Assembly (NCBI GenBank): GCA_907165135.1
Contig: OU015566.1
Location: 2,542,001 to 2,606,000, forward strand
Origin: Oikopleura dioica
Taxonomy: Eukaryota > Animalia > Chordata
Length of the DNA stretch: 64,000 bases
Direction: 5' to 3'
Part shown: piece by piece, positions 3,001 to 53,874 of the stretch
How the letters are laid out: the number at the start of each line of letters is the position of its first letter
Numbering within the stretch: position 1 is the stretch's first letter
Made by a program: the position numbers and the translations under genes
The notes under the pieces: generated by a model
What the model was told of the DNA's origin: nothing
Seen by the model: only the letters and a program-made list of their open reading frames with translations
The model's database searches: none

Positions 3001-6000
3001 TTTGCTAAGCAGGAGGTGATCTGTCAAAAGAACTGTCATTTACGAGCGGGTCAAGGTGTTTTTTTGTCGGTCACGGGGTTTGGAATAATTTTCCAAGAAA
3101 TTTTGCTTTTTATTAACCGCGTGGGACGAATTGTACATTCCAATGTAGTTTAAGACTTTGAAGAGCCCTAGTTCAAAAAGTACTAATCGTATGAATCTGA
3201 AAATTGAAATGCGCCTTTGCACATCCTTAATCTCTCGTTCTTTAAAATTTCAGCGAATTATCGCGCAACACCAGCGCTCTGCAGCGGATTAAGTCTGACC
3301 TACTTCGCGCTGCGCTCCTTTTCTCACTCGGAAGTCCGATTTCAATTGGGATTTTTTATTATTTTCAAAGTGAAAATATAGGTTTTCGATACTGGAGATT
3401 TCAAATTTTTAATAATATTCACAAAAAATCAATGCGAAATCAACTCAAACGGTCAAAACAAGAGCTACAAGTAATATGAGAATGAGGTTTGCAAACTGGA
3501 AAATGGAAATTTATGTTGAAATTATGAAAGCCTGTATTCGATTTAGTATTGTCTGAAAATTTGGCGAGAATCGAATGAGCGAGTCGCGAGTTATTCAAGT
3601 TTTCGCTTAAACTACAATGAAATGTACAATTCGTCCCGCGCTCATACGCGCGGATTCGTCCCACGCGGTTAACTATAGAATTTTGTCCCCAACAATTTTT
3701 ACCAAAATGTTAGCCATATTTTTGAACAAAATTTTGGCCCTTTTTTTGACCAAAACTTGGCCATGTTTTTTACCTTAATTTGGCCATGATTTTGACCAAA
3801 ATTTGGCGATGTTTTGAAGAAAATTTTGGCCATCTTTTTGACCAAAACTTGGCCATGTTTTTGACCAAAATTTTGGCCATTTTTTGACCAATCAGATTTT
3901 CGCATTTTATCGCTTTGCAAATTTTACCGCAATTCGTGTAATTAGTTGTCAAAAGCATCAGATTTTCTGTTCAATTTATTTATTGACACGACACCCTTAT
4001 TTCTTCGTCTTACCTTTGAGATATTTTCCTTTGAAACTTCTTCGGTCTCTTTGTCCGTCTTTATCAAATCCAAAATAATCCCCAGCGAGGTTTTTCTGAT
4101 ATCAGAAGGCGGGAGTACCCTTTCAAGGAGTAAACTTTTCAAGATTGAATGAAGCTTATTTTAAATCGGATCTGAGGATTTTTCGATTGAGCAGCTCTTG
4201 AGCTAAATATACAGTTTTCGCCCTCGGGCTCGAGCTATTTTTTGATTTCTGCTTTGGTCGTGGTTTTGAGTATAATTGACAAATTATAAAACCGAGAAGT
4301 TCAAGTTCAATTTTTCAGACTGGAAATCAAGGAAGATTTTTTCAAGATTTCTTTTTAAAGTTTATTTTTAAAAAATCACGCTTGAGCAATTCCGCGCAAT
4401 TTTCTTGCGTCGAGTGTTTAATCTTCCAGATGGTCGATTGTTTGAAATACTGGAAATTTTTCCTGACAAGTACACTTCAAATAATCGGGCAAAAAATCAA
4501 TTTGTTCGGTTTTTTTTCTTGGGCTATCATGAAATTTATCCAATTTTCTTTAAGAAAAGCTGATTTTCTTTGATCTCTGATTTTCGATCATAAAAGAAAA
4601 ATGGGTTTCAGAGGAATAACAAAAAATATCCAAGAATAAATTAAGGGTGTCACCATGTTAAAAAAATGAGGAAATTCAACCTTTCCTTGTTTCATAAATC
4701 TCTTCAATTGGACTCTTTCTTCCCTCCGCCAAATTCTCTTTAATTTCTTCCAAGATCTTCATTTTCTCTTCTTGATGTGTGTTGACATAAAGTCCTCAAT
4801 TAATCTCCCGGGCAACCTAGATTAATTAGCACACTTCCGCTCTTTATCAACTGTGCGCACCTTAATCAGCTGCTTTTCCCGCGCTCTTCCCTGTGCAAGA
4901 TCCATTTAGGATCATTCAATAAAGTGAGCTTGTATAAGTTGGACGACTTTTTCACCAGTTGAACCAAGAAATATATATACGCAAGAGCCAAGTATATCAC
5001 TGGCGACTGCACAGATAAAAAACCCAGAGACCTCCCCCGAACGAAGACTGAAAACTACATCAAGAGAACTCTCCAATTGTGCCGAATCCAGATCCTGTTG
5101 CTGAAACTTGTAAGTTAAAGTGTGAATCTTGGGAGTGGGAAGAAAGGCAATTTGGGAAAAGTGTTTTATCTTTTGGTGGACGCCTTTATTGGATCTTTGG
5201 ATTGCCTGGACTTCTTTATCGTTGCGATCTCACACGCGCTAGTGGTCTCCAACCGAGCCGCGCCGATTCCGAGCGCCGCATCGCCGCACGAGTGACTTCC
5301 TACCACGACGCCGGAAAAACTTCCTACTGCGCTACCGTAACTTGCGTTGTTCTCCTGCCACGCAGATACACATCTACTCAGTTACAGAAGTAGTCAACTA
5401 CACGCTGCGCTTTGATTTTGGTAACAAGCTCCCGCGTGGTTCCGCAAACACAAATCACGACTATCAACCTCGATCATCAGCAACCCGTTGAGTGATCACA
5501 ACGACGGTCGCACGTGTCGATTACCCGCAGAATTCCGCTACTCATTATCAGTCTCCTGCTGTTCTCGTTGCAATCAAACGAAGTATCCCGCAGAACTCTT
5601 CATTAGCAGCGTCCTGTCATTTCTGGAACCCGCTGAGCTGAGCTCGCACGCAAACTTTCTGCTGCGACTGACACCATTTCTCCCAGTCGAAACTTAAGGG
5701 TATCACTCGCTTACCCGAAAAAACGCTCGCTAGCTTGTCGATTCGTCGGACACTCATCTAAGCAAAAGCGCGCCTCTTCTAAAGTCAACATGGGCCTCAA
5801 ACCTGTTGCTGAACTCACTGTTGCCGAACTTCGAGCAGTCTGCAAACGACTCAAGTTGGACACGAAAGGCCTAAAGGCTGAATTACAACATACACTTCGG
5901 GCTCATGCTAAGAAAATTGGATATCGCCGAACGGACGATCTTAAAGACTTTGTTATCAATACAGATAACATCGATACTGAGAACCAGGATGCACCAGTAA

Positions 6001-9000
6001 CGACTGTCAGTAGCGCTGATCCTGCTCTATCACTGTCGCCCTCGATCATTCCAGTACCCACGACGGAGTTGCCATCGGTAACAAGTCCAGCGCCTGTTTC
6101 ATCATCGTCCTTTGCATTTCCGCAGCCTTGCTCAACGGTGCCGATCTCGACGACAAGTCTTGATTCAATGACTGCGTCCTCGATGTTTACTCCTCAGGAG
6201 AGCAATTCCAGAGCCGATTCGGTCTCCCGCATCCTTGGTGGATCTACTACTACTACATCGGCAGCATTTGGTGGTCAATATGGTCTTTTCGGAAATCGCC
6301 TAAATTCTGGATTAGCCTCGAATAGGAACGTGATTGGTCAATCAGCGCAATTTGCGAAAACTTCGCCTCCTCTGACGCCGCCGATGAATCAATTTGCAGT
6401 CAACTCTGCTGGTGCAAGCACTGGAAAAGCCAGAGACAACTTAAGAAAGGAAAGTTCCGACATCAAACTTGTTGTTTCGCGAGACCCGCAAGAGATCGAG
6501 AATCTGCTTGACCAAATTCTGAATTTGGGAAGTATCTACGAGTGGAGCGACGCGCAGCGCATGATCGTGCTTCGAACTAAGCTCAGCCCGCAAATTCAGC
6601 GAGAAATCGGAATTTCGGGTCTTGGAAACTTCGAAGATGCCGCGGAACGCCTCCGTAAAAGATTGGGATTCAGTCATCAGAAACTGACGCTGTTGATCGA
6701 AAAGCTCTCTCGTGGACGTCAAGAGACCGTGACTGCTGCCTTTTCGCGACTTATCAATCTTCTCTCTTCTGCTGGATCCGTTTTCCCAAATCTGCCCGAA
6801 GAAGCCAAGCAAACGGTGTTGCGCCAGGCACTGCGAAGAATCCTCCGCCCAAGCGAATTTCAGTCCTTCTATCTCGCTTGGATCGCCCAGCAGATGCCAA
6901 CCAATCTTTCCTCGGTGGCAGAAATCCTCAGCCTTCTTGAGGGAACTTTCGCTAGCCCAGCCGAAGCCGTGGATCTCGAGAATGACGAGTACGATTTGAA
7001 TGCAGCAAATCGCGAAATCGTCTGCCACATGTGCGGCGAAACTGGGCACGTGATGAGAAACTGTTCTTTGATGACTGGAATCAGGCAGATTTCAACAATC
7101 ACGTCGCGATTGGACCAGTTGGAAGCGATCGCAATAAAGCAAGACTCCTCTTTTGAGCGGCTTCTGAACAAAATAGAAATGATTGCTGAGAACCAGTCCG
7201 CTTACAACACGACGCAGCAGCAGCAGCAATCACAAGGCCAGAAGCAAGGACAAGGTGGGAGCAAGAATCATCGCAACACGAAGCCGCACTGTGAGGTGTG
7301 CCCACTTTTGCCAACTGGATACCCACCTCGTCATTTTAAACAGACGTGCCCAATGAAATCCCAGCATTGACTAGGCGGGGATTCTCCAGGCTCAGAAAGC
7401 CAAAAACTCGCCTGTCATGAAATCTCGCTGCCTTCCCTGCTTCCGAAAATCAGACTACAAATCCTCGACACTGAACTTCTTACTCTCGTTGATTCGGGAG
7501 CCAACTGCTCGATTATGGCCCAAGAACTCGCTGCTAAATTCCCTAACGCGCGCCGTGAGCCAGTGGAAGCGAGCATTGTCGTTGCGAATTCTGACAAGAT
7601 GCGCTGCAAGGAAAAGATCATTCTACCATTGTGCCTGAACGGAAGAGTTCGTTACCAGAGTTTCCTCATCGTCCCCGGCCTCAACCACGAATGTATCCTT
7701 GGAATGAACAGCTGGAAAGAATTGACGATCAACCGAGACACAGAAACGATCCAGATTGACGGAGAGACCTACGATATGGTTCAAACTGGCCGACACCTTG
7801 CACTAAACAATTTGGTCGCGGCTACCATTGGTCCTGAGTCCTTAACGCCAATCAGAGTGAAAGTTCCTGTCGGTGAAGACGAGCTCGAAGATGTGATCCT
7901 GGTTGAGCCTTCACCAGAGGGATTCTGCAAGGAACAAGGTATCGAGACTTGTGAAGCGATTTACAGTGCTGCGAAATGCCAAACAATCCTCGTATACAAC
8001 TCAACGAACGTGGCGCTTACCATTCCAGAGGGCGCGCAGGTGGCGACCGCTAGCCTCATGAAAAGAACGAAAGGGGGGCAGTATGAGTTCAATGAGCTGA
8101 TCAGTGTTTCAAGCAGTGAATTCGACCGTGAGTGGGAGGAGCATCAACGAAATCGCGAAATTCGACTTAAGGGTCCAGACCGCTATAAGTACAAGGAAGT
8201 GGAAATCGGCCCTGACCTCACGTTCGAAGAGAAGAAAGCAATGACGGAGAAGCTGGACAAGTATTGGAAGGTTTTCTCGACTGGACCGCAGGATCTCGGC
8301 ATGGCGAAGTCTCTGGCCTTCAGAATCCGACTGAAAGATGAGACAGCCCGAGTTTACGAGAAGCCTATTCCTGTGCGCCCTGGATGCAGAGAGAAGGCTA
8401 CAGTGGTCATCGAAAATTGGTGCAAGGCGGGCGTCGTCAAGAGGGGAGCGAGCGACTTTAACCTCCCTCTCTTTTTTGTGAAGAAGGGCAAAGACGACGT
8501 CCGCCCTGTATTAGACGCGAGGCGGCTCAACCAATTGACAGTCCCTACGCGTTGGCCGATCCCTTCCCTGAAAGAATTGATGTCCAAACTGTCGCGGGAC
8601 ATCTCCAAGACGAAAGGCAAGCTCTACGTGACTTCCGTCGATATCGCCTCCGCGTTTTCGCAGATAAGAACAGCCCCACAAGACATGCACAAGTGTGCGT
8701 TCTCCTTCCTTGGCCGACAGTACATCTGCCGACGCATGGCTTTTGGCCTGATGAATTCGCCCTCCGTCTTTGCTCACGTGATCGACCGACTCTGTTCGCA
8801 CATTCCTGGACTCTCTGTGCTTATGGACGATATCATTCTTGTTCATGGAGATTTTAAGGAGCATCTTTCGGCAGTTGACGAATTTTTGAAAATAATGCTC
8901 GAGAACGGTCTTCTGCTGAAAATCTCCAAAAGCCACTTCGGCGTCCGAGATTTCCAGTACTTGGGATTTCAGGTCAGCCACGACGGAATACGGCCTTTGG

Positions 9001-12000
9001 ATGACAAGCTTGACCCAATCCGATGTTTTCCGCGCCCAGGGAACCGAAAGCTTCTCAGGCGCTTTCTTGGGCTTTGCAACTTTTACTCCCACTTTGTCAA
9101 GGATGGCCATCGCTTGTTGTCTCCGCTGTTCAAGTTAGCTGCGCCTTCGAAAGAAAAGTTCGTGTGGAAATCCCAGCATGAAGAAGCCTTCTCCAGCTAC
9201 AAAGAAGCACTCGCTCAAGTCGTCTCCTTCAAGCACCGCGACGAGTCAATGGACCTCGTGATCGCAACTGATGCCAGCACAACCGGAATCGGCGCTTGTC
9301 TGTACCAGAGGGACGAAAATGGGCGGCTTTTTCCGTTGGGTTTCTATTCGCGCGCGCTGACTGATGGCGAGCGGAAGCTACCGTCCCGATATCTCGAACT
9401 ACTGGGATTGGTCTGCTCTTTGGAAAATTTCGAGTATGAAATTTACATGAGCCAAGTCTACGCGCTGACTGACCACAAGTCGCTGCAGTTAGTTCTGAAT
9501 GAACGTCGCCTCCGGCAAGATGTGCCAGTGCGTGTAACGAACCTGTACGCAAGGCTGAGTAGGTTCAGGGTTAAGGGAATAACGTATGTTCCCAATAACG
9601 AGCCTGTCATCGTCTCTAGCGACGCCTTATCGCGCGCATACGAAATCGCCAACGACGACGACCATGACGAATCCGATGGACACATCGATCGGGGATTTCT
9701 CAACAAGATCGAGCTGCGACCAAAGGGACCAGAAATCTTCGAAGTTCTTACGATGCAGACGCGTCGGGCGAAACGATTGGCGAAAGAGGAAGAAAAAGCA
9801 AAGGAAGAAGCCGGTCAAAAGGTCGTTATGATCAGCGGCGACGTGCCCTACAGAGCCTGCGACATCATCAGACTCCAAGAAATCGATCCAGTGCTGATAA
9901 GAATGCAGAAAAGAGGAGAAATTGCCACTGATGAGCAGGGTGTATGGGTTCTGTCACGCGACAAGGACATCATCACCCTTCCTGAGCAGCTTCACATCGA
10001 GATTGCCTCCTTCGTCCACTGCAAAATGGGTCATCCTGGAACACTTGCCCTTCAGAGGATCCTGAAACGGAAGTTCTTTATCAATGGCCTTCAACGGGTA
10101 TGCAATGAAGTCTGCAACGATTGCCACACCTGTTGGCGCACCAAGCCACGGCCAAAACTTAAGGCTCTCCACCCGCCTAGGCCGGAAGTAAGCACAAAGC
10201 CTTGGCAGAAATTGTATGTCGATTTGTCCGACTTCGGCTCAGTAGATATTCTTGGAAATCGGTTCTTCTTGGGAGTTATGGACGATTGCACGCGCTACCT
10301 TGTGGGAAGATGCCTACCGGATAAGAAGGCTGAGACGGTGGCATTTGCGTTGGCCGACGTTTTGCTGAGCAACAACGCGCAAGGGGCCATGCTCCGTTGC
10401 GACAATGGAAAAGAGTTTCGAAATGCCGTTTTCGATCGCGTCATGGAAGCCTTCAACATCCGCGTCGCCTACATCAGCCCTTTTCACGCTCAGAGCAACC
10501 GCATCGAAAGAAAATTTAGATCCTTGGGATTGAAGGCTCGACTGGCAAATGTCAGCCGCGATGACTGGAGCCGCCAAGTCTGCTTTGTCCTTCACACAAT
10601 CAACAATACGCCAACGGAAGCAATGAGCGGTTTAAGTCCCTCTGAAGCACTCACAGGGCGCCCTATGGAACTCCCGCTCTTTCACCTCCGGCCTGAGCCC
10701 GACAACAACGACGACCCCTTTCTCTGGAGTGGCTACATGTCTGGATGGCTGCGTCAAGTTGGCCAGTTTCTCGCCGGAAAGTACCAAGAACAAGCGGCAC
10801 ATCACGTCAAGCCGTTTCATGGAACCACGCTCGAAGTGGATCAGCGAGTCGCCTATTGGGCACCCATGCGGATCGGAAAGTGCAAGAAGTTACATGTCTC
10901 CTTCCGCAACACCGCCGTCATCACAAAGAAGCTCAGCCCTGATGTCTATGAGATCAGAGACGAATCAAGTGGGAGCGTTCTGAAAAGGAACATCCGTTTT
11001 CTGAGACCTTTGCCCTTGCCCAGTTCCAAATGATTTATTCTCCATGTACATACAGATGTTTTGCCGTGACTCAACGTTAACTCGCCGATTTTCAGACAGT
11101 GCACCTTTACGAAATGCTTTTCTTCACCCTTGCCGTCGCGCTGGTCCGATGCTCTGCCGAATCTACTGTGCTGAGCGGGGGAATTCTCCTCGAGGAGACT
11201 GGCAGACTCTTCCTGTCGCGACAACGCAGCCATCATCATATCATCATCAGTCGGCCCCTTCCGCTCGACGTCCTGAGAATGGAACCTGGAGTCGACGCCG
11301 GACAATGCGACGTCGACCGCTGCATCAAACACTACAAAGCCAACCGTTGGGACAGGAGGGAATGCACGGAAAACCTCGCCGATAAGCGAACTTTTGCCCT
11401 ACTGGATGTGATTGAACGGAAATTTCGATTGGAACTGCAGTCACTTAAAGCACAAGCAGCATATGCAAGATCTCACGAATCGCATCTGGGAAAAAGATTC
11501 GCCGGCGCTCCTGCTCTTGTTCTGGCAGCAGCCAACCTGGGTCTTAAATTGAAAAATACGAACGACATCGCCAAGCTTCGATCTGTATCTCTTCATCAAG
11601 GAAAGAACTTGGATAAACTCACACGAAACTTCGCGAAGCTCCAGAGCGCCGTCCAAGTCAATCTCAATGCAACACAGGACCAGCTTGCGAGAATCGACGA
11701 CGATATTTGCCGACTCAATAACCGGATGTTGGAAGCTCGATTCGAGGACTGGGCCCGGATCACCGTGGACAAATTCATGGAGGAGATGGATTATCAAGTC
11801 GCAAGTCTGGAGCAAGGATTGATTCCGAGCCGTGTGGAATGGAACAGACTCTTTACGTCTGCGTGTTGGGGATCATGCATTGCTCTGGAACCGGAAATGT
11901 GCGAGCGATACTGTGAGAACATGCTGAGAGAATTCCCACAGGAATTAAAGCCTGAACTCTACGGGCTGAACATCACTGAAAACTCTCTCGACATCCACAT

Positions 12001-15000
12001 CCAGCTCTCTTTCCCAGTCATCGAGTCCGCGCCAACACGACTGTATCATGCGAACTCCTTTGGAATCATCACAATGGACCCTTCAACTGACGAGAACTTC
12101 CTGATCGCCCCGGACATTGCCCCGTTTGCAACATTGATCCAGAACGAGTTTTACGAAGTTGACCGCTTTAGCTGTTTAAGCGCTCGCAAAAACATGATCT
12201 GCCGGCACTCAGCAATCTCAAGCGCTTCCTGTCTCCGCGATGTCCAGAATTGCAACATCCGGAGAACTGCTACAAAAGCAACCTGCTCATTCGCCTTCGA
12301 CAAGAATGGACTCATCGTTTACGCGGCAGAGAAAGCAATCCTGAGAAACAGAACAGTCTTGTCCGACATCGGATCGGCCCACGATACTTTCACTGGCTTC
12401 AAATATTTCCCTGAAACAAGCTTGGACCAGGAAGTCTTTTGTTCCGGATCGCAGCAGCTCATCAAGATCCCAAAAACAAGCATTGTGACGTCTGACAACA
12501 CCAAGATCGACTTCAGAGGTGCAAGGAACAACTTCACCTTCAGCGCCGTTGACCTTGACCACAACGACTTCGCTGATGACGTCGAGGACCGTCTCGATGA
12601 CTTGGAGGATGTGGTGGACGACAACTTCACTCGATCAAAATCCATATCTCTAATCTCCAACGGTATCCTTATTCTTTTTACTTTCTTAACCCTGACCCTC
12701 TTCACTTGCATGTTCTGCAGGCGAGTACGCGGACTTGACAAAGCGATTAATAAACATCTTCAACCACTTGTGTAAGCTAGCACCGTTAAGTTCACACCCA
12801 CGTCCAACTTCTTTTTTTTTTGATGGAGTCAAGCCACTTCGAGTCCTACCTCTGGAGAGCCTGGTTAACTAGTTATAAATAGAGTTTTTTTTTGTCCGAT
12901 TTTATTAAAGAGGGGGGCGGGAGAGACTTGGTTGACGGCAAGTCTGGCTCTGTATACGTAACGGTTGCAGAACGGACTTTCCTCGATACCACTTAGCACT
13001 CCTTATTTTTATCGCGGAAGCTAACTCCACGCTGACCGACCCATATGAGCGGCCTTTGGGTAAAGGCGGGGGTTAATTGCTCTGATCGGACACTAGGATT
13101 AGAAATTAGCCAGGTCTAGCGTTTTACAGTTCAACTTATGTATGTTGGATAAAGAATGTTAAGTAAATCGCTTGGTCAACCCTGTACTCCGCTTTGATTA
13201 TTGCAACCTTCAATATCATAATCACTTTTATCAATAGCTCTAGACATCTTATACTCAACCCACTTTTCCTTAAAATCTCTTTGTTCTTCTATTGTGTGTG
13301 TGTGTGTGCCTTTTCAACGATGCAAACTTCCTCGAACAATTCTTCAACGAGAAAACTACTCCTTATACAAGAAAACGACGAAATATTACTGTATCAAAGA
13401 AATCTGTTCTTCAACTTTTACTCTTATACTACCCTGTAAAACTTTACCGCTCGTGCCAGTCAAAATATATCCAGTCAATGTGTGTGTGTATTTCTTAACC
13501 CTTCTACAGCTCTAAAAAGCTGGGGGTGGGTGATGTGTGTTGACATAAAGTCCTCAATTAATCTCCCGGGCAACCTAGATTAATTAGCACACTTCCGCTC
13601 TTTATCAACTGTGCGCACCTTAATCAGCTGCTTTTCCCGCGCTCTTCCCTGTGCAAGATCCATTTAGGATCATTCAATAAAGTGAGCTTGTATAAGTTGG
13701 ACGACTTTTTCACCAGTTGAACCAAGAAATATATATACGCAAGAGCCAAGTATATCATTCTTTTCCTAAAAAAATTTTTCGTTACCGAAAAAATCCATCC
13801 TGTCTTTTAAATTGTCCAAATATTTATGTCTCTTATCAAAACCTGGCAGCGCGAAAAACGGCGAACTTTGAAGTTGAATTTTTAGTTTTTTCATTTTCGC
13901 CCTCAGGGCTGTGCTTTGAAATCTCTTGTCTAGCCGTGCACTTGTCATTTTAGAAAACAGCGTTTTCAAAAATTTATTTTAAAAATGTGAAAAAATAATG
14001 CGCTTCTCAAATTGAAAATGCGCAGCGGCGCTAGTAGTTGTGGCGCCCCGAAAATCAGAAATTGCTAAAAGCTCCCCAGCGGGGAGAAAAATTATAGGCC
14101 AGATGGTCAAGGCCAATTTTACGGGAGGTGAGGAGGAGAATCGAATAGGGTCATAAACGGAGGATTGATATGTCTACTCATAGGATTGAATTTGCACTTT
14201 TTGGTAAGGAAGCACCTTAGACTAGATTTTTCTAAAAAAAAGTGATACCCTTATCCAATTTTAACCATATTTAATTTGTTGATTTTTTATGACGAACACA
14301 GTTTTTTGAATTTAGAAATTTAAGGGTAAAGCCGTCTATTTTGGCCGAGTTTCAGAGTTATAACTTATAAGCATCCGAAATCGGCGAAATCGACGGCTAT
14401 ACCCTTAAATTTCTAAACCAAAAAAATTGAATTCGTCTAAAGAATCTAGAAATTAAATATGGTTAAAATCGAATAAGGGTATAACTTTTTTTAGAAAAAT
14501 AGAAAAATTTTTTTCAGAAAAAAAGCTAATTTTTATGAAAAATTTTGCATATCGGTCTTTGAAATCTATTAATAATAGAATAATTTCAGTAATTCTTACG
14601 TCCGTTATACTATTTAAAACTAGTAATTAATAAGTAATAAAGCATTCCTCAATCTCAAGGGTATCATCAACCTCCAAAAAATTTCACGCTCGGGCCCTAA
14701 ATTCGGTCATCTGGGTGATTATATGGCTCCCCATGCGATTTCCGGCGCTGATTATTGATGCAATCTGGGCTTGTGAACAAGGCCAGGAGGATAATAATCC
14801 CCCTTTGCCAAAAAAAGCTACAATACGCATTGCTTTTTTGTAACCGCCAAGTTTAAAGAAAAGAGATTAGATCACAGGCAATCCGCCAAGTAATTTGGCG
14901 ATTTCGCGCAACGCGGTTTTTTAATTTTTCTTTAAAAAAAAAGCAAAAAGCTTTATTTTAGGTAAACATACCAAGTTTCTCGGTGGAAATTTGCATCAAT

Positions 15001-17363
15001 TGTACAAAACAGCTTCTTATGTCGCCAAATTTCTTCATGACTTTTCGCTGTCTCTGCGCAGACCAAGATTCCATTTGAAAATCGGGGCCGAGACAGATTC
15101 TTGAGGACAGAACAATCGTTTGTTTCCACAAATCTGTGGTCATTTCTATTCGGCCCAACAATGACAGCAGGAAATTTCCTTTTCAGAAGTTTTTAAATGA
15201 ATCATCAAAGAAAATCGATGAAGTTATAGATAGGTCAGGGTGAATGTTCCTTAAAAATATATTTTTTAAATTCATTTTTTGGAAAAAATATTTTTTATTT
15301 AAGGGGTTAGAAACAGCTTTTTTCCGAAGAAGGCATTTTTTGACCGGTGCTCCAGACAAGAAAATCTTACATTTTCAAATTTTCTCTTTAGGTTTAGATA
15401 GATACCTCTTAGATCTAGGAGCATCTCCCTCGAAGTTTTTTAAGTCATCAATTTTTTGAGTAATCGGGCTCAGAATCAGCTCATCTCTCCGAAATTCTTG
15501 ATTTTCGCCAATTTCGCCAACACGAATATCTCGAGTCACCTGATAGTTAAGCGTATTTCATTCACAGTTATGTGAAACTCAACCCCTTTTCTTGGAAAAT
15601 TTATGAGGAATTTCCGTTAACATAAATATATCTTATGTTTTCTTTTATGGAGCTACGGTCCAAAATCGAGAAAGCTGTTTCTACCCCCTTTATTTATAAA
15701 AAAAATTTCTAAATTATTTTTTTTTCTTTTGAAAAAATATTTTTTTCACTAAAAATTTTCTTCTTAAAATTTTAAAAACTCTTTCCTAAACAATGACCAA
15801 ATATAAAAACCAATCTTCTTTCCTCATCATTTTCCATCGTTTCTTCGTATCCATCAAGCATCTTCCCGAGAATCCTAAAAACCTTGAAAAACAGGTGGTC
15901 CGAAACTAAAATCGCTAATGGCTTATTATTGATTCGTCTTTTTGAAAAAAAAAGATCCTCAAAGTTTATTGCTCTCGCTAATAACACCCATCATCGCCAT
16001 ATGTTCCCTTTTTATCTTCTTACCGAAAAAGAACCGGCAGAAACTCATCTTTCTTCTTGTCAGAATTCAGATTTGATCGATAAAAATGTTCAAAGGCCAC
16101 TTTTTCGCCGAGAATTCGCAAAATTGCTGTAATGACTTGAACGGGACTACTGGAAGCTGCGTTTTCTGATGAAGACAAAGAGGACTTATCGGCAGAAATG
16201 ATCAAGGGGACGAGGAGGGCGCAGCTGACCAAGGTGGTTTCCATTGAATTCGAGCTTGAATCGGAACTTGATCTTTTGGTGGGTAATTCAATTGTTAATT
16301 TACGGCCTTTTTGGCAACAGAAAAAGGGGTAAAAGCCATAAAAGAGACAAACACAATGATTTGGCCACTCAAGCCAATTTTGGGAGAGGCTTGCTCAAAT
16401 TTTCATCTTTTTTCGTGATGATGAATCCTGAAGAAAAAGAGTTTATTTCGCAAAAGGAGGCAAGAGTTGAGACGGAGAAATCTACTTTTTCAAAAAAATA
16501 TTGGCGTCTTTCACTTTTGGCCCTTTTTCTCCTTGGTTCAGTTTTCTATGGAGGTATTTATTGTTTAAAAGATGAACTAAGAAATTAAATGAGATTAATA
16601 ATTCTAGATGATTGTAAAATAATATCCGTTTAGGCTTCCAATTAGGACGTGCGAAAGCGCCTGAAAAGGAGGATGTGATTTCCGACTACCAAGAAGAATA
16701 CAATGAGGAATTTGGGCTACCAGATGCTGACTGGGAATTCATAACAAGCCGAGGAGGTCACAGAATGCTCGCCTCCTTACAAGATGACAACAAAGATGAT
16801 GAAAGCGCGGTTACTACCACCCTTTTTACCACAACCGTCATGAATTTCGACTGCGACGGAGACGCATTTAACCGGCAAGCCTTTTTCTGGCGCATGAGAA
16901 ATTGCGAATAACTGTCTCTTTTTAAGCGAAAATACCGACTGAACATTAAATTAAATTTTAATCCACTCCTAAGAATCTTCAATATCTTCCTGACAAGTTC
17001 GCAAATTTCCTCAAAGACTTTTGAATCGTTCCCTCTCTTCACAATCAATTCTTCCAACTTGACAATCAGCACCGACAGAATCGGCTTTCTTGTAGAAGAA
17101 TTGGCGAACTCTGTCGATTCTACCATCGATCTCATTGTGCTCAGTTGATCGATGAAAGAAGCAGATCTTGTGATTTTTCTCGAAAGGTCGTATTCTTTAG
17201 CGCGAATTCGTTCTGATCTCATCGCGCTAGAATTCGCAAAAAGCAGCGATTCGTCAAGCAAATCTTCCGAAGACTTGAATCTCTTTCTTCCTCCTTCCAA
17301 AGTGTCGTTTAAATTTCCCCAGCCGAAAATTCTCTTTTTACGCAGCTCTGATTTTTTCCCCAT
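1..17363 (-). CDS. DOCK1-5 (DOCK-A/B) family guanine nucleotide exchange factor, multi-exon; 3' end runs off the window start
   Basis: Minus-strand exon translations are collinear with the DOCK1 ARM region as I recall it: 17363-16935 (IDQLSTMRSMVESTEFANSSTRKPILSVLIVKLEELI ~ QKLYCLIEIVHSDLFTQHDCREILLPMMTDQL); 16250-16022 (VQVITAILR ~ FVACMTAILR); 15987-15780; 15161-14972 (DLWKQTIVL...QMESWSAQRQRKVMKKFGDIR ~ QLWNNYFHL...QLENFSSAKRAKILNKYGDMR); 4160-3960 (LERVLPPSDIRKTSLGIILDLI ~ [23 protein letters not shown]); then DHR-2 at <1240. Exon boundaries are approximate. Confidence 0.85.
216..1240 (-). CDS. DOCK DHR-2 (GEF) domain exons
   Basis: LLDYR...LYRDYLFKLYDVQLGQNARLEAANCL, FFYLGFWGNGFPKNFQNVQMIARGEELERLEDFQESVLEWFPNAK and HVQIFPVK match DOCK DHR-2 lobes A/B. 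The reading frame continues in the 41..421 ORF after a short intron. Confidence 0.9.
1322..1716. mobile_element. Non-autonomous TIR DNA transposon (MITE), TTAA target, Kolobok-like; family A
   Basis: TTAA at 1318-1321 and 1717-1720; TIR GGGGGTAGAACTAG / CTAGTTCTACCCCC; homologous copies at 15303 and 62901. RR..YY termini with a TTAA TSD are the Kolobok signature. Confidence 0.8.
3117..3668. mobile_element. MITE with TTAA TSD and CC-starting TIR (piggyBac-like)
   Basis: TTAA 3113-3116 + CCGCGTGGGACGAATTGTACATT...; right end TTCGTCCCACGCGG + TTAA 3669-3672; extra subterminal inverted copy at ~3607-3640. Confidence 0.75.
3685..3892. repeat. Minisatellite, ~22-23 bp unit (AAAATTTTGGCCATGTTTTTGACC-like), about 9 degenerate copies
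   Basis: Tandem periodicity read directly; it produces the repetitive spurious ORFs 3699..3920 and 3770..3958. Confidence 0.85.
4773..4999 (+). repeat. 5' LTR of element 1 (227 bp)
   Basis: Direct repeat of 13531-13757; TG..CA ends; AATAAA inside. Confidence 0.97.
5001..5015 (+). other. Primer-binding site of element 1 (TGGCGACTGCACAGA); cognate tRNA not identified
   Basis: TGG (complement of tRNA CCA) 1 nt after the LTR end. Confidence 0.65.
5790..7370 (+). CDS. gag: Gag (526 aa) with N-terminal SAP-like motif, CCHC zinc knuckle and a second Cys/His motif
   Basis: ELTVAELRAVCKRLKLDTKGLKAELQHTL (SAP-like); CHMCGETGHVMRNC (C-x2-C-x4-H-x4-C); CEVC...H...C at the C-terminus. Confidence 0.9.
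   Translation: MGLKPVAELTVAELRAVCKRLKLDTKGLKAELQHTLRAHAKKIGYRRTDDLKDFVINTDNIDTENQDAPVTTVSSADPALSLSPSIIPVPTTELPSVTSPAPVSSSSFAFPQPCSTVPISTTSLDSMTASSMFTPQESNSRADSVSRILGGSTTTTSAAFGGQYGLFGNRLNSGLASNRNVIGQSAQFAKTSPPLTPPMNQFAVNSAGASTGKARDNLRKESSDIKLVVSRDPQEIENLLDQILNLGSIYEWSDAQRMIVLRTKLSPQIQREIGISGLGNFEDAAERLRKRLGFSHQKLTLLIEKLSRGRQETVTAAFSRLINLLSSAGSVFPNLPEEAKQTVLRQALRRILRPSEFQSFYLAWIAQQMPTNLSSVAEILSLLEGTFASPAEAVDLENDEYDLNAANREIVCHMCGETGHVMRNCSLMTGIRQISTITSRLDQLEAIAIKQDSSFERLLNKIEMIAENQSAYNTTQQQQQSQGQKQGQGGSKNHRNTKPHCEVCPLLPTGYPPRHFKQTCPMKSQH
7371..11033 (+). CDS. pol: Pol (protease-RT-RNase H-integrase), in frame with gag after a single TGA
   Basis: LVDSGANCS (aspartic protease, upstream of the ORF-track start 7515); RPVLDARRLN, VDIASAFSQI, MAFGLMNSP, LMDD (RT); TDAS...TDH...DALSR (RNase H); H-x4-H...C-x2-C zinc finger, YVD, CDNG, IER (DDE integrase). 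Gypsy domain order. Confidence 0.95.
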   Translation, partial: LGGDSPGSESQKLACHEISLPSLLPKIRLQILDTELLTLVDSGANCSIMAQELAAKFPNARREPVEASIVVANSDKMRCKEKIILPLCLNGRVRYQSFLIVPGLNHECILGMNSWKELTINRDTETIQIDGETYDMVQTGRHLALNNLVAATIGPESLTPIRVKVPVGEDELEDVILVEPSPEGFCKEQGIETCEAIYSAAKCQTILVYNSTNVALTIPEGAQVATASLMKRTKGGQYEFNELISVSSSEFDREWEEHQRNREIRLKGPDRYKYKEVEIGPDLTFEEKKAMTEKLDKYWKVFSTGPQDLGMAKSLAFRIRLKDETARVYEKPIPVRPGCREKATVVIENWCKAGVVKRGASDFNLPLFFVKKGKDDVRPVLDARRLNQLTVPTRWPIPSLKELMSKLSRDISKTKGKLYVTSVDIASAFSQIRTAPQDMHKCAFSFLGRQYICRRMAFGLMNSPSVFAHVIDRLCSHIPGLSVLMDDIILVHGDFKEHLSAVDEFLKIMLENGLLLKISKSHFGVRDFQYLGFQVSHDGIRPLDDKLDPIRCFPRPGNRKLLRRFLGLCNFYSHFVKDGHRLLSPLFKLAAPSKEKFVWKSQHEEAFSSYKEALAQVVSFKHRDESMDLVIATDASTTGIGACLYQRDENGRLFPLGFYSRALTDGERKLPSRYLELLGLVCSLENFEYEIYMSQVYALTDHKSLQLVLNERRLRQDVPVRVTNLYARLSRFRVKGITYVPNNEPVIVSSDALSRAYEIANDDDHDESDGHIDRGFLNKIELRPKGPEIFEVLTMQTRRAKRLAKEEEKAKEEAGQKVVMISGDVPYRACDIIRLQEIDPVLIRMQKRGEIATDEQGVWVLSRDKDIITLPEQLHIEIASFVHCKMGHPGTLALQRILKRKFFINGLQRVCNEVCNDCHTCWRTKPRPKLKALHPPRPEVSTKPWQKLYVDLSDFGSVDILGNRFFLGVMDDCTRYLVGRCLPDKKAETVAFALADVLLSNNAQGAMLRCDNGKEFRNAVFDRVMEAFNIRVAYISPFHAQSNRIERKFRSLGLKARLANVSRDDWSRQVCFVLHTINNTPTEAMSGLSPSEALTGRPMELPLFHLRPEPDNNDDPFLWSGYMSGWLRQVGQFLAGKYQEQAAHHVKPFHGTTLEVDQRVAYWAPMRIGKCKKLHVSFRNTAVITKKLSPDVYEIRDESSGSVLKRNIRFLRPLPLPSSK
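11099..12775 (+). CDS. env: Env-like class I fusion glycoprotein (likely start Met 11114)
   Basis: Signal peptide MLFFTLAVALVRCSA; KR|FAGAPALVLAAANLGL cleavage and fusion peptide; heptad repeat; Cys-rich region; N-glycosylation sequons; C-terminal TM helix (GILILFTFLTLTLFTCMFC). Confidence 0.9.
   Translation: MHLYEMLFFTLAVALVRCSAESTVLSGGILLEETGRLFLSRQRSHHHIIISRPLPLDVLRMEPGVDAGQCDVDRCIKHYKANRWDRRECTENLADKRTFALLDVIERKFRLELQSLKAQAAYARSHESHLGKRFAGAPALVLAAANLGLKLKNTNDIAKLRSVSLHQGKNLDKLTRNFAKLQSAVQVNLNATQDQLARIDDDICRLNNRMLEARFEDWARITVDKFMEEMDYQVASLEQGLIPSRVEWNRLFTSACWGSCIALEPEMCERYCENMLREFPQELKPELYGLNITENSLDIHIQLSFPVIESAPTRLYHANSFGIITMDPSTDENFLIAPDIAPFATLIQNEFYEVDRFSCLSARKNMICRHSAISSASCLRDVQNCNIRRTATKATCSFAFDKNGLIVYAAEKAILRNRTVLSDIGSAHDTFTGFKYFPETSLDQEVFCSGSQQLIKIPKTSIVTSDNTKIDFRGARNNFTFSAVDLDHNDFADDVEDRLDDLEDVVDDNFTRSKSISLISNGILILFTFLTLTLFTCMFCRRVRGLDKAINKHLQPLV
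13514..13530 (+). other. Polypurine tract of element 1
   Basis: AAAAAGCTGGGGGTGGG immediately 5' of the 3' LTR. Confidence 0.85.
13531..13757 (+). repeat. 3' LTR of element 1
   Basis: Matches 4773-4999. Confidence 0.97.
14224..14500. repeat. ~280-bp imperfect palindrome (foldback / MITE remnant)
   Basis: Left arm TTTTTCTAAAAAAAAGTGATACCCTTATCCAATTTTAACCATATTTAATTT...TTAAGGGTAAAGCCGTC mirrors right arm GACGGCTATACCCTTAA...AAATTAAATATGGTTAAAATCGAATAAGGGTATAACTTTTTTTAGAAAAA. Confidence 0.8.
15303..15688. mobile_element. MITE family A, diverged copy in a DOCK intron
   Basis: TTAA-GGGGTTAGAAACAGCTTT ... AAAGCTGTTTCTACCCCC-TTTA; internal similarity to 1322-1716. Confidence 0.7.
16418..16911 (+). 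CDS. Small type II membrane protein nested antisense in a DOCK intron (2 exons)
   Basis: MMNPEEKEF...KYWRLSLLALFLLGSVFYG, then a GT-AG intron (~16554-16633), then GFQLGRAKAPEKEDVISDYQEEYNEEFGLPDADWEF...; lies between DOCK exons at 16250 and 16935. Confidence 0.55.
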
Positions 17364-19958: not shown

Positions 19959-22900
19959 ATGGAGAGAAGCATACTTTACGGGTTGATAATCGTTGCCTTA
20001 TGTGAGGATCAAAAAGCCTGTACTTTTACTCAATACCCTGCTAGACAAGGAAATTTTCAACAAAATTTTCATGTTATCTAAAATTTTGAAATAATGAAAT
20101 CGAAAAAGACGGAAAATGCGTGGCTGCTCCTGTTGATGACCCTTACTACTGTATTAGTCCGTCAAACGGGACTCCAACATTGTATGGATCTGTGATGAAC
20201 AGAAAAGATTCAATAGCGCGAGTATTCAAAGATTACAAAGATATGCATAAAGGATTTACAGCGCAGAAGTATGATCTTGACCTTGAGACTTTTGGTATTG
20301 TTGCTCTTGTAGACGAACCAATCAAATACTGCACAAACAATCCGGCTCTCGGAAGTGAAAGCGGGCATTGCGAGGAGATTCAACCCAAGCAAATGACTAG
20401 TGATTTCTTTTATTTCGATGGGGGATCATTGAAGCTCAAAAATTATGTGGATATGAAGCTTTTGGGAGGCCCTCGACACATGATAAAACTCGGAACTTCT
20501 GGCGGATGCTTCGTTTACTACAAAGTTTTTATTTTTCCGTCGTTTGATTTGAACGTTGATATCTCTCTTGTCGATAAAACTCCAAACAACAGAATTTTGG
20601 AACATCTTGAGATGCCAACATCAAGTCTGATCAACAACGGGCTAAATCCTCTCTTTAAAATGGATATTTTTGACAACGTATTTTGCGCGATCCGAGATGA
20701 ATGCAGATTAGATAAGGGCGCGTGTCAGAATTATGACACAGATCTTAGCAAAAAAGTGGCTATTGATCTCTGGGATGTCATCTCATCTTCTATTCACTTT
20801 AAAAACGCAAGAATTGTCTCTGGCCCAAAAATTGAGCTTGCTAAAAATTCTAGCGAAGAAGCCGGTCTTGCAGAAATGGCTAAACGTTGGTACTTACAGG
20901 ATGAGTCTGGCAACTGGCTCAAAATCGCTCCACAATCACCGTTGTGCACGATAACTATCCAATTAGATTGGTACATGTACCAAGCGATTACTCTTATCGA
21001 TAATATCAATAAGCAAGAAACACTCTTCATCGAATATGTGAGCATTCAAGGGGCCTTTCAAAATGTTCTTTTAGCTGATGCCGATATTAGTTTTAACAGA
21101 AATTTCGATGGTAATCTGCTTGCGACTAGAAATCGTACATCTATCAGGTCCCTATTCTACGATGATGTCGAAATCCAAGATGTCGACGATTTGCCTGCTA
21201 TTTTTGTCATTGACCAAAGCTGTCAGTCATATTTTGATTGCGTTATCATCGACAAGCTTCTGATCAATCAGACTTTCGAAGCTTGTAAAGATGGAGAAGC
21301 CCTTCTTACCATGAATTCCGATCTTTTTGTTGTCGATGGCGATCGACAGATAAACAGCAGAAGTGTTCGATATGAGGTTCTTCAATCAAGAAGTTTTGAG
21401 CTTTTTGGCTCAGCTATTTCTTGCACCGCTGCTCTTTCCCCTGGCCAGCATGAATTTACAATGAAAGCTGTTCAAGATAACAGGATTGATAGAACTTCTT
21501 ACTTGACGGTCGCGGTAACTATTGCTGAGCCTGTTGTAAACTGGACTTCAATTGTCACTACTCCGGTAAAATCTGCCGAATTTGAAATACTTGGTTCTCC
21601 AAGCTTTGTGATGAATACTCAGGACCATTCGGCGTTTAAACTTGACATCAGCCCTCCAGCTGATGGCCAAGAAGTCATTCTTATATCAAAAACTCCTGGA
21701 TTTACTTTCACTGATAGGTTTGAGCTTCTTTACACTGGAAGAAGAAATTTTTTACTTTCAAACTCCATTGATTTGGTTGTTCAAATCTTACTCGTTGAAA
21801 ATGATGCAGTTATTGCTCGAGAAGATAGTTTTTCGCTGGGAATTTTCAACATAGAAGATAGGACTGCTACAACAACCGAGACGCCTAAAACTGACTCGTT
21901 TACAGCAGCGGAATATGCAACGGAAATGTTAAATGAATGTTCTACTCCAGCGATTACGTGTGGTAATGCTTTTTTGAAATAATGGTTGTTCTTAATTGAG
22001 TCTTTTAGAGCCTTGCGCACCCATCGAATGTTCTTCAACAGCCGCGACTTCTTCAGTAATGACTTCAATGGCTTCTTCAAAAGAGGATAAATCTCGAAAC
22101 TGTGATTTATTCAAAATATTAATGAGTTGTCTTGCAGCCTTGTTCTTCGTCACAACAATTGTTTTCATCATTTTATGGAGCAGAGCGAGGAACAGTGCCA
22201 ATGAGGTAGGTGAAGCAAGAATTTTCTAAAAATGAGCTTTTCGAGAAAATCGCGCCGATCGGAAAGCAAGTTCTCGAAATCAGCGAAAATGAGGACCAGG
22301 GAGAAAGCAAAAGTTTACCATCGGAATCGGAACTTACTGATTCTGAATCAATCAGTGATTCAGAGTATGCACAGCCGAAAATAGTTTGGGTTCCAGCTGA
22401 TACGAAGTAAGACTTCTTACATGATTTTCGGAATAAATTGATTTGTTTTAGACTTGAAGATCCTGTTTATCATACATTGGAAGACCATCAAGTCATTCTT
22501 AAAAATTTCATAAAACCGGGAAGAATTGTAAGTCACCGTGAGGTGCTCCTCAGGAAGAATGGTGAAACAAAACATGCATTTGCAGTCGTGCACGATATTG
22601 AGCTTGCTAGTCGAGATATGCTAAATGAAATCAACAGCAGAATTCAAATCGAGACACAAAGTATCTTATCTATCAAGAATAATAATATTAGGGGAATTTA
22701 GTTTCGAAAATGCGTCACGAAAATGTGCTGAGATATTACGGATCCTGGGTCGAGCTCGACAAGCTATATGTGGGCTACGAATTAGCAGAAAAGGGAAACT
22801 TAGACGAACATCTGCGACAATGCCTGCGTCCGGAAAATTCAGCGTCGAAGATTTCAAATAATCAAATAAAGGAGATCCTCTTCCAGATCGTTCAAGGCCT

Positions 22901-25608: not shown

Positions 25609-28600
25609 ATGCCGCTGAAGAAAGTGAAAAGAAGTATTTCGAAGATTTTTTCGCGTTCTTCGACGAATTTGAAAGAAATCAAAGAACATCCGACAGAAGG
25701 GCTTGGAGCGAAAATACCTTCTTCGACTCTCTCGCCTTCTGAAGATTGCTCAGGTACGAATTCTCATCATTATTGTGGGAAAAATCGAGAAGCCGTTTGC
25801 GGCTTCGAGCGGAAAAGGGAAAAAGCCGCGTTTTTTGCCAAATATGCGGCTTTGAATAACTAGACACACCGCGGCTTATTCCTCGAAGCCGCGAGCTCTC
25901 GTTTTTCTTCGGAACTTTCGCCTATTAGCTAACTTCCTGTACTCTAGAACCTCCATTCTACTACAGTGGCTCCTCAACCCGTTCCCCTTCCACCTCGAGC
26001 CGCTCCTCATCAGAAGACTCGTCCTCTTCTTCTTCTACTCTCCGAGAAGAAGCGAAAGTAGTTTTGCGATCAAAAGAAAGACGCAGCCGCCCTCCGAGAC
26101 TCACTCATGCCATTTCAAAGGTATTTTCAAAGCGCAAATTAGAAACAGATTTATCTCGGCTAAATTGACAATCCGAGTCTCTGAAGAAAGAATTATTATT
26201 TTATCTCTTCTCTGAAATGAGTTTATTTGAAGAGAAATCATGTCTAAAGCAAAAGTTTTTGGTTTTTTTTCTTACTTTTTCAGAGATCAAATTGAGCCTC
26301 AATTTGAGTGATTGACTCCAAAAACTCGCTTAATCTATTTATTATTCAAAAACGAAGCAAAATAAAGATATGGGCATGGAAATCTTCGCTGGAGCCGAGT
26401 CAGGCTCCCGTATAAGCGTTTTTTAAAGACCTGACTCAGGATTTCAACACAGGTTGGTTGTCTAGCCTTTTTTTTGCTTCCTTTTTTGATTGATGACAAG
26501 ATTGAGCGCGTTTGTGGAGTCGATTCCCTTAAGATTAGAAAGAGACTTAGGAATAGGCGGCAAAACTATCTTAGATTTTCTATTCAGGAAAATATCAGCA
26601 AGCGGCTGTCGTTACCAGCAGATGTGCGCATTCCGCCGATTTACCTGACGATGCTGACGCCAGATTCTCCCATAAACTGGGAAAAGCCACTTTCTAGGTA
26701 AAATTAATTCGCAGAAAACATAAAGCATTCCAATCCCATTTTCAATTACTGCAAAAGCACTTGTCAATCCAGACTAATCCGCCTCGAATATTTATGACTG
26801 GCTTTCTTGTTTTATCTCGGATCATTACAGTGATTCGATTAAAGGAGCGGTTTTCTGTCTTTAATTTTTCATTAGCTTGGCTTGTTTTTTTCTTGTTGTG
26901 GCAAAATTAAATAGAAAAACAATTATTTTCAGGGTCGATCGAAGAAAGAGTCTAAATGAAATTGGCTTCGGAAAACTGGAAACATACAGAAAAGGCGTTG
27001 TTCTCGGCGAGGGAACTTATGCGGTCGTCTACAAGGGGACAAGTAGTCTTACTAGTATTGGGATCTTAGATTCGTTAGACTCCCTCGTCCCCTAAGGTCA
27101 CTTGCTTATCTAGATCGAGCTTTGCTCGGTCGCCGCCGTGTATTTCTCTCCATTCGGTAATTCACGCAGTTCGTGAATTAACCTCTATTTTACTCCAGCT
27201 CGAAATACAGACGTCAAAGATACTTTACTCGTTTTCTTCACTCGTCCAGATATAGAGAGCAGGCAAACTACGCTAGAAGTGGGAGATTCAGCAGAAGCTA
27301 GGATCCCTTCAGTGGTATCAGAGTAGTCCCGTTGGAGAAAAGATAAATTTTTCCGCCATCGACAACCGAAGTTTCGCAACTTGGACGCTGATTGGCCGTC
27401 AGCGGAGTCGAGGGGAACCGAATCACCAACCGCCACCGCGCCGCCGGAGAAACTCCACTCAGAGAATTTTCCGCACCACACCAACACCACCCCGAGCGAG
27501 CGCCACCGCACGAGCGCCACCACGACCCACGCGCCGAAAGTCGCGCCCACGCAACCACGCACGCACGCCGGGGAAAACCTAAAATACTGAGAAAAACATA
27601 ATTCTTTCGCCACTTTTCACCAAAAATCGAGAGAAGTTTACGAAGAATCGACCCTTGGACCAGACCTTGAAATTTCGACAATCGCTGGACAGAGAAATCG
27701 TCGGGCGTTTGCGCAAAAAGGCACCTCAGCTCATCATATTGCGACTTTTAGTCGCAGTATTTTCTGAGGGCCTGAAAGGTAATCCAAGGCCCATAAACCC
27801 TTACTGCCGATATATTTCGAGCTATGGCGGCGAACAAATCACTGCTAGAAACCGTCACCGAAATAAGAAGCATAAACGATCGAGTAAACTACCTCGAAGA
27901 ACAAGTGCGAAATGACGAATCACTAAAGCCAAGCCTAGAGCCCTTGATCACAGAAAGCAGAGTAAAATTAGAACAGCTCAGTACAACGCTTCTTACCTGC
28001 GAGCTCGATCAAGGAAAAGACTCTACGAATGCGACAATGAGAGAAGAAGCATGGGTGGCCACTACCTGGTCTCGTCACGTCCAAGACTTGCCGAAGCTGG
28101 ACGCCGCATGCAACACATCTTTCAACACCTTCTTGGGCAGAGCCGACATTTATCACCGCGCCTACGTCCGCGACAGACCTTCACGTGAACAGCCTTTCAT
28201 CGCAGCAGTGTACAGCCACTTCGACTTGAACATCGAACGCTCACTTGGAACCGAATTTCTGAATTGTCAAGACTGGAAATCGGCCAAGGCGCTGCTAGAG
28301 AAATCATTCGCCGCGAAGAGTCACTACTTACTGAAGCTAAGCGAAGTTTTCGACGTCGAATACGACCATTCGAAGCCGTTTGCACACTACACCGCCAACG
28401 TCTTGCAAAAGATGAACGAGGCGAAGCAAGCGACTTTGAACTCTTACCGACAAGAGAAGTCAGCCGACGCCGGGGTCGATGAAATATTCGACATATTCTC
28501 GACGATGATGCTGTACTTGAATCTTAGGAAAGAAGAACCAGACGTTTTCAACGCAATCCTTCCAAGCCTATCAAAAGTTTACGATATCAACGAACTCTGC

Positions 28601-37016: not shown

Positions 37017-37913
37017 TCATTGTTCTTTTTCTGGAGTTTCTCCGGTAAACTTGACATCTGGATAAATGATTGAGACCTCGTTATCTTCTTCGTATCCGTC
37101 AGAGACTTGGACGGAAAAGCCGGCCTTTTGCACTACGTGATCGGATTGGAAATGGACGTCGACGAAAGACGAAGCGAAGGAGAATCGTGTTTCCTGAAAT
37201 AGACGATGAAAAGGACAAAAATACCCCAGTAGCGTCTTTACCGATTGAGTTCCAGTGAAGGCATATTGTTCTCCAGCGTCATCACGGAAAACGAGATTGT
37301 CCCAAAATTCTTCGATTTCAAAGGAAGTGAAGTCGAAAGTGAGTCCATCCGTTGAGGAGGAGAATCTGTTGGTGCACTGAGAATTTGAGTTGTAGTTACT
37401 CTCTGGATAATTCGATGATCTGAAGAAAAAGTGAATGAAAAAATAATTCATTTCATTTAAGAAAAAATACTCACTGAAAAGTTCCAGTGCCAGAAACAGA
37501 GTACTCGTTATCACCATCGCAGATTCCAACAATCAATGAATTAATCGATCCTTGATCAGAAAACTCAGTCGTGAAATTGTACGGGTTGTTACGGGGCCCC
37601 AAGCTGAATTTCTTTTTGAACAAATGCATGAAAATTTGACTTACTTATCCCGTGAAACAGCTGCTCCAATGCCTCCAAGGATAATCATAAAAACGAAGAA
37701 AATGCAAGGGCAGCAAATTACGCCGACGATGAAATAGGCGCATGAGTTGTCCGACTTTCTTTGCTGCATAACGACCGGCATTGGTTGCGGGGAGGGTGGG
37801 GGTTGGTAGTAAGCTAAATTGTGAATATTTGCGAAAATTTTGAATTAAAAAAAAATCTTACGTTGTTGAGGCGCATTTTGCTGAACATTCAAAATCATCG
37901 GAGGTTGCTGCAT
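37017..37913 (-). CDS. Type II membrane protein with a CUB domain
   Basis: TM AYFIVGVICCPCIFFVFMIILGGIGAAV; CUB motifs SSNYPESNYNSNSQC, TFDFTSFEIE..WDNL, HFQSDHVVQKAGF. Confidence 0.75.
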
Positions 37914-38280: not shown

Positions 38281-39210
38281 TCAAGCGCTATCGAGCTTGA
38301 TCTTTTTTGGTTTCGAGAGATCAAGGGGCTTTTCTTGCTCAGTCAGGTTTTCCGGCGACGAAAAATATTCAGAAGAAGTTGTGTCCGGCTCGATTTCTTC
38401 GATCGTCGCAGAGTTGGATTCTTCGTTGTTTGCGGAGCCAGTCATTTCGAGCAGCTGCTGGAGCGCTAAAAGAAAATGAATTTGGGCTGGCTTTCAGTTA
38501 ATTGAAGCTTACCAAGAAGAGTTTGGAGGTTCTGCAAGTTCTGTAGTCCCTCGGCTCCTTCTCCCATGCCAAGTTGATTTGCTAGGCTCAGGATTTCAGA
38601 AAGAGTTTCAGCCGGAACTCCTGAAGAGAAATATCAATAATAGATTGATTGAATTTTTTGTTTTTGTCTTTACGAACCTTGAGAAGTCGGTTCAATAGCT
38701 GGTAGAGCCTTTTTCTTCTCCGTTTTTGGTCGCTGTCTTTTGCGAGGTGTCTTGGCCGGAGAATCCGCCGGCTTTGGAGAAGCCGCTGTTTTTTCTGGCG
38801 AAAATCGATAACTAGCAAGAGTGAGGGAAGGTGGAGAAGGAAGGGTTTCGACTGTGGTGTCGACTTCGATTTCGGAGTGGTTGAAGTTTTCAGGAAATTG
38901 GACGAAGCGGTAGACAAACTTTTGACCGGAGACTTTTTGGATGATGTTCTGAATTGAAAGCTTGGGAAGACGAAAAAATCGTTGTTGATTTTTACCTTGT
39001 CGTAGTAATATCTCAGTGCCCGGGAAAGCTTGTCATAATTCATGTTATTCTTGTTTTTTCGCATTCCCCAAAGACGGGCGACTTCTTCCGACTGGTGCAG
39101 CTTGAATTCGCCCTCTTTTGAAGTCCAGCTGATCAGATCACGTGAGCTGGGTTCCATCAATAGCTCCAAAAGGAATTGCCAAAGAGTGATGTTCACGTCA
39201 AAACCTGAAC
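38281..39210 (-). CDS. ETS transcription factor, TCF subfamily (ELK1/ELK3/ELK4-like); 5' exon(s) uncertain
   Basis: [11 protein letters not shown]...[46 protein letters not shown]|[16 protein letters not shown]; last exon ends ...[17 protein letters not shown]. Confidence 0.85.
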
Positions 39211-53718: not shown

Positions 53719-53874
53719 TTTTTTTCTTTTTTTACCGGCGCAGACGAGAATCGCCGGTTGTTTCTGCTGGTGCACTCGAAACCGCATGTAAAATATTGCG
53801 AGAAAGCTCTTCAAAATAGCACCCTTAGACCAAGAACATCCACAAGAATTTTTCGCTCAATACAAAAAAGAAAG

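Follow-up and report, generated by a model that had tools for sequence, protein, structure and literature searches.

Tor3b and Tor4b, envelope-bearing retrotransposons of Oikopleura dioica, are the closest described counterparts of the element reported here (PMC4402516). Hallmarks of their Env proteins are an F-X-G motif, an N-[L/V]-G motif with aromatic flanks, seven conserved cysteines, a C-terminal membrane segment and a predicted furin site (PMC4402516), and Tor4b has been placed sister to tunicate F-type elements (PMC13524379). In this study, a window of 64,000 nt of O. dioica DNA (assembly GCA_907165135.1, contig OU015566.1, 2,542,001–2,606,000; window coordinates are used below) was analyzed, in which a long terminal repeat (LTR) element of this anatomy interrupts an exon of a DOCK gene. 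We consider it probable that this is a recent Tor-type, env-bearing insertion of the Ty3/gypsy class, lying antisense to the gene and 8 nt inside the exon, which likely abolishes the function of the allele and likely is hemizygous beside an empty allele.

The splicing consequences of such an insertion can be set against introners, transposable elements in which the acceptor AG may come from the target duplication at the element end (PMC11282704, PMC12130899, PMC3443670). LTR elements account for about 12% of classified introners (PMC12130899). An acceptor derived from a target duplication is already known, LTR-derived cases included, and Oikopleura is listed for intron gain through transposon insertion (PMC3443670). 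At the present locus the duplicated target likewise gives an AG beside the element end. However, introners supply or recruit both of their splice sites and have been shown to be spliced out, whereas here an AG is found at the downstream end only and the introner hallmark of splice sites at both ends is absent. Removal of the element would need the old upstream donor, would have to skip an intact acceptor and would be imprecise by 6 nt; if it were shown, the element would act like an imprecise introner. Splicing rescue of an exonic insertion is not described in the passages of PMC4402516 consulted. None of the papers listed in a literature search that covered main texts, few of them from subscription papers, concerns this insertion, and the one listed for Oikopleura together with dedicator of cytokinesis is unrelated.

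A probable Tor-type element antisense to the gene

The element occupies 4773–13757 on the plus strand (8,985 bp), antisense to the DOCK gene. Its 5′ LTR (4773–4999) and 3′ LTR (13531–13757) are 227 bp long with TG...CA ends and are identical at 227 of 227 positions; a purine-rich tract at about 13514–13530 precedes the 3′ LTR, and the target-site duplication TTCT lies at 4769–4772 on the left and at 13758–13761 on the right. The gag gene (5790–7370, plus strand) encodes a SAP domain and a zinc knuckle that falls under the Pfam cut-off. It ends with TGA at 7368–7370, and pol is open in the same frame directly downstream. The pol product (7371–11033, plus strand, 1220 aa) shows the order protease, reverse transcriptase, RNase H and integrase; the protease match is under the Pfam cut-off (E 1.3e-4), and the best homologue among the matches listed is an unnamed ENA protein with 72% identity. 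Paired TG...CA LTRs, a 4-bp duplication and this domain order identify a Ty3/gypsy element, and the identical LTRs together with the open reading frames (ORFs) indicate that it inserted recently.

The third ORF (11114–12775, plus strand, 553 aa), whose ATG lies 80 nt downstream of the pol stop, is likely an F-type env, as judged from motifs and Atlas neighbours. It contains F-A-G at residue 129 right after KR, N-L-G at residue 141, 17 cysteines (unaligned to those of Tor Env), five N-glycosylation sequons and a hydrophobic segment near the C-terminus, from about residue 509. A Pfam search of this ORF gave no match. F-type env errantiviruses are described from invertebrates, tunicates included (PMC13524379), and the Atlas neighbours of this ORF are Baculo_F, Fusion_gly and Gypsy env clusters. 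The nearest clusters are Baculo_F and Fusion_gly (paramyxovirus-type fusion) at 0.96, with a recognition value of 1704 that is in the weak range, and the single-sequence structure model (pLDDT 35) is not usable for comparing folds.

The element resembles Tor3b and Tor4b in its host, in the order gag-pol-env, in having near-identical LTRs, a 4-bp duplication and open ORFs, and in an apparently hemizygous state. Its Env candidate is in part comparable to theirs, with F-X-G and N-L-G motifs, with cysteines and with a putative membrane segment at the C-terminus; the spacer between pol and env recalls that of Tor4b (PMC4402516). Unlike in Tor3b and Tor4b, no furin site of the form R-X-K/R-R was found in the third ORF, which has just KR ahead of F-A-G, and its N-L-G lacks aromatic neighbours. 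No named Tor Pol occurs among the 120 pol matches listed, and the likeness to Tor3b and Tor4b is one of anatomy. A preliminary description of the window, made from its letters, had proposed an env-bearing LTR element with a target-site duplication inside a probable DOCK exon, and this is borne out by the identical LTRs and the TTCT on both sides, with env as the likely identity of the third ORF.

The DOCK gene and the interrupted exon

The same description had taken the minus-strand host for a probable DOCK gene, which homology confirms: all 73 matches carry DOCK domains, the best being Ciona DOCK1 (E 6.5e-19), and the gene is homologous to the armadillo/DHR2 region of DOCK1-5. A profile-library search identified the O. 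dioica protein CBY07582.1 (profile P0075), 91% identical over 86 residues, and a metagenome scan with this profile led to an orthologous locus (L001) of another O. dioica lineage, in which the exons are collinear and the element is absent. Sequence divergence indicates that the window represents a diverged lineage of O. dioica relative to CBY07582.1; the species has been described as a cryptic-species complex (PMC11067885). Exon A (14972–15178, minus strand, 207 nt, phase 1), the orthologous boundaries of which are seen in RNA, ends with a GT donor, in agreement with the G|GT previously placed at 14972. A homologue search with exon A by itself gave no candidate. Downstream on the same strand are exon C (4014–4119, 106 nt, starting in phase 2; placed by orthology to L001 2404–2509), exon D (2173–2258) and exon E (390–1233, followed as far as 390).

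Exon B, the interrupted exon, is 91 nt long (phase 1/2) and consists of window positions 13765–13762 and 4772–4686 on the minus strand. As it stands in the window, its first 8 nt (13758–13765) follow an intact native acceptor (AG at 13767–13766), the next codon is a TGA at the start of the LTR, and a non-canonical GA donor (AG|GAA) closes the remainder (4686–4772), with the next exon beginning at 4119. This donor matches the AG|GA-A context reported for GA-AG introns of O. dioica (bioRxiv 10.1101/616565), with no difference found. Exon B is present in CBY07582.1 and at L001; between the window and L001, 82 of 91 nt are identical and 25 of 29 residues are kept.

Five of the 24 listed sequencing runs were examined, two of DNA (X1 and X4) and three of RNA (X9, X12 and X13). 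No RNA run was listed as containing the window's own sequence, a result that does not bear on expression. With X13 placed on L001 (87 reads), exon A is joined to the native acceptor by 23 reads with 21 different starts, and exon B is joined to exon C through the GA-AG intron by 17 reads with 15 starts. Of the 26 listed X13 reads that enter exon B, every one uses the native acceptor; 23 come from exon A and 3 from an alternative donor. The junction counts come from X13 because X9 gave 2 reads and X12, with 16 reads on L001, had no splice joints listed. RNA of the empty-site lineage therefore splices to exon B, and the segment 4681–4772 is not intronic, as it would have had to be for the proposal of the preliminary description to fall at this point. 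That description had correctly recognized the exon and its native acceptor at 13765, and it had extended the exon to a GT at 4680, as 96 nt in phase 1/phase 1; the RNA supports 91 nt and the GA donor instead. Use of the GT donor at 4680 would lead to stops, either at TAA 4163–4161 through an acceptor at 4171 or after a frameshift through 4119.

Two other structures were considered and rejected. If exon B were intronic and exon A joined to 4171, the score on a local DOCK profile would be higher (60.8 vs 56.4 and 61.7 vs 58.8 bits), but this route needs read-through of a TAA, the corresponding stretch of L001 has a stop and another length, and the RNA includes exon B. Skipping of exon B would shift the frame, since the phase-1 end of exon A would meet the phase-2 start of exon C.

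The introns of this gene fall into two types. GA-donor introns (at window 15178 and 4119 and at L001 793 and 2404) end in AAAG with no T tract in four of four cases; GT introns mostly end in a T-rich AG, with one exception before exon E of L001. The pattern points to a possible coupling between the type of donor and the type of acceptor. The 2010 genome paper reportedly described GA introns with a distinct acceptor. A distinct acceptor for GA introns is also implied in PMC4402516.

An alternative 5′ exon (13843–13948, minus strand) runs from an ATG to a GT donor, is conserved, is in frame with exon B and stops 77 nt short of the native acceptor. Its counterpart in L001 is at about 1666–1771, within the A-B intron, and the orthologous donor is the one used by the 3 X13 reads mentioned above; a short DOCK isoform may be produced from this internal start. 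Farther upstream, the last DOCK-like match is near 17147, a weak one to about residue 808 of DOCK4. Among the tblastn matches listed for the minus strand from about 17400 upstream, none to an SH3 or C2 region was convincing, and the gene may lack part of its N-terminus or have diverged too far.

Empty alleles and the fate of the insertion allele

Empty alleles were found in both DNA runs, X1 and X4, each of the window's lineage. X4 contains a single unbroken contig over the empty site (L001 1835–1940) at a depth of 39.1, the loose letters of which match the upstream intron of the window. The empty-allele contig of X1 (depth 112.3) ends at 1874, and a shared contig with a depth of 203.9 begins at 1845; the overlap of 30 bases places a branch at 1844, which corresponds to window 4774, the first base at which the end of the LTR departs from the empty allele. 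We infer that X1 is heterozygous for the insertion. Tor insertions are reported as hemizygous and present in less than 5% of individuals, and homozygotes were not observed (PMC4402516). Because empty alleles exist, and because a Tor insertion is as a rule hemizygous and rare, survival of the allele requires no rescue.

In the scenario that we favour, the element inserted antisense 8 nt into exon B and left the native acceptor intact. Transcripts from carriers would mostly join exon A or the alternative exon to this acceptor, reading Gly-Lys-Glu-stop, and would then terminate or be mis-spliced inside the element, with truncated or degraded RNA lacking the downstream exons as the expected outcome. 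An uninterrupted copy of the gene would shelter the broken allele, and the AG at 4771, if used, would be a minor by-product of the landing site and not a selected feature.

This AG (4772–4771 on the minus strand, within the left TTCT) had been proposed as a rescue acceptor that might make the insertion tolerable. Its geometry is as claimed: splicing to 4770 is in frame and costs two residues, Gly-Lys (6 nt), and the frame then stays open through exons C–E. What had been overlooked is that the native acceptor is unaltered in the carrier allele and is followed in frame, after Gly-Lys-Glu, by the TGA at the LTR start. In positions −12 to −3 the native acceptor has seven T and the rescue AG one. 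The minus strand of the element contains 635 AGs, of which 438 are T-richer than the rescue site and 16 are T-rich YAG, as well as 12 donor-like GT[AG]AG sites and three AATAAA; the first donor-like site found at the upstream end of the element is a GT, 52 nt beyond the native acceptor and past the stop. An in-frame GAG 24 nt upstream of the rescue AG is another possible acceptor. The element is not a self-contained intron, as no in-frame donor-acceptor pair was found at its ends.

How readily an insertion creates such a site was estimated with a chance model that combines this LTR end with a 4-bp duplication. An in-frame AG arises at 136 of 1,314 positions in the five exons (10%, with exon E counted to 390 only), which means that its occurrence here is not much beyond chance; within exon B the proportion is 23 of 87 positions (26%), and 14 in-frame AGs would cost four codons or fewer. 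The same AG also stands in the empty allele, 6 nt beyond its acceptor, and a 14972–4770 junction would consequently count only when assigned to the insertion haplotype.

The strongest competitor is that the spliceosome bypasses the native acceptor and uses the AG at 4771, or the GAG 24 nt upstream, so that an intron of about 10.2 kb including the element is removed with loss of Gly-Lys. We regard this as distinctly less probable than a loss of function, and within it a detectable minor leak through the rescue AG is unlikely and its use as the main route more unlikely still. In its favour, the frame remains open to exon E, the rescue AG is one of just two in-frame and open AGs among the 14 in the last 150 nt before the exon, and introners offer precedents for acceptors derived from a target duplication (PMC11282704). 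It is opposed by the native acceptor, which is both intact and stronger, and by the numerous competing sites, along with three poly(A)-like hexamers, that lie between the two AGs. The Gly that would be lost is present in 89 of 110 distinct DOCK matches with the anchor motif (222 proteins examined), and both O. dioica lineages retain Gly-Lys. The empty-site lineage lists no alternative downstream AG acceptor at a threshold of 3 reads, a weak argument as the nearest AG is out of frame.

Several points weigh against the reading as a loss-of-function allele. Acceptors in this gene are lax, which keeps rescue splicing plausible: the four GA-intron acceptors described above, two per lineage, are AAAG sites without a T tract that are in use, and the L001 GT intron before exon E ends in attaAG, near the atcaAG of the rescue site, with L001 junctions supported by reads. 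Exon definition could favour an AG that stands beside the exon's own donor and purine-rich body, and loss of the two residues hardly alters the DOCK profile score (58.7 bits without Gly-Lys vs 58.8 with). The fate of the allele is one that we infer, and the RNA reads matched to the window come from outside its lineage (60 of 63 reads in X12 and 2 of 2 in X9 are less than 90% alike). The allelic state is read from two runs of the 8 that contain the stretch, the branch in X1 could also be a single-nucleotide polymorphism at that base, and X1 may be the source sample of the window.

Two further explanations concern the allele as a whole. The insertion allele might be silenced or transcriptionally blocked before splicing comes into play, by heterochromatin on the element or by antisense transcripts that start in the 3′ LTR and run into exon A, and would then be a null without a defined aberrant mRNA. 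The antisense orientation, with the 3′ LTR directed at exon A, and the transcription starts carried by Tor LTRs (PMC4402516) are compatible with this, which we nevertheless rate as very unlikely. The least credible account is an assembly artefact through misjoining at repeat copies: none of the contigs listed joins LTR and exon letters, but the exact 4-bp duplication, the TG...CA ends and the break of the X1 contig at the predicted base, where depth rises from 112 to 204, speak for a genuine insertion.

On the favoured interpretation, the locus most likely adds a further recent Tor insertion to a class reported as common overall and rare per site. The insertion may serve as a naturally occurring loss-of-function allele of a DOCK gene in Oikopleura. 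It offers a clean test of acceptor choice, between an intact T-rich AG and a target-derived AAG 9 kb away, under unusually permissive splicing. If rescue were the main route, it would show how a compact genome can tolerate large autonomous LTR elements in its exons. A bolder version, in which the full-length, endogenous retrovirus-like element is a nascent imprecise intron because a lax spliceosome skips the intact acceptor for the AG of the duplicated target as main site and carriers make near-normal DOCK minus two residues, appears unlikely to us; if true, it would provide a polymorphic, genotypable snapshot of an exon-boundary shift caused by an autonomous LTR element.

Other features of the window

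A second Ty3/gypsy element lies at 27055–33538 on the plus strand, with LTRs of 257 bp that are 100% identical and what appears to be a CTAG duplication. The pol of this element occupies two frames, divided near 30115–30229, and its gag ends with a TGA in frame with pol. An uninterrupted ORF of 630 codons at 20090–21982 (plus strand) gave no match in Pfam. Inverted repeats resembling miniature inverted-repeat transposable elements, together with a high-copy repeat, are located in introns at 14226–14500, 48793–49335, 58758–59702 and 1317–1720, one of them in the A-B intron. Neighbouring minus-strand genes at 37020–37532, 38591–39301 and 51951–53856 encode CUB, Ets and galactosyltransferase domains.

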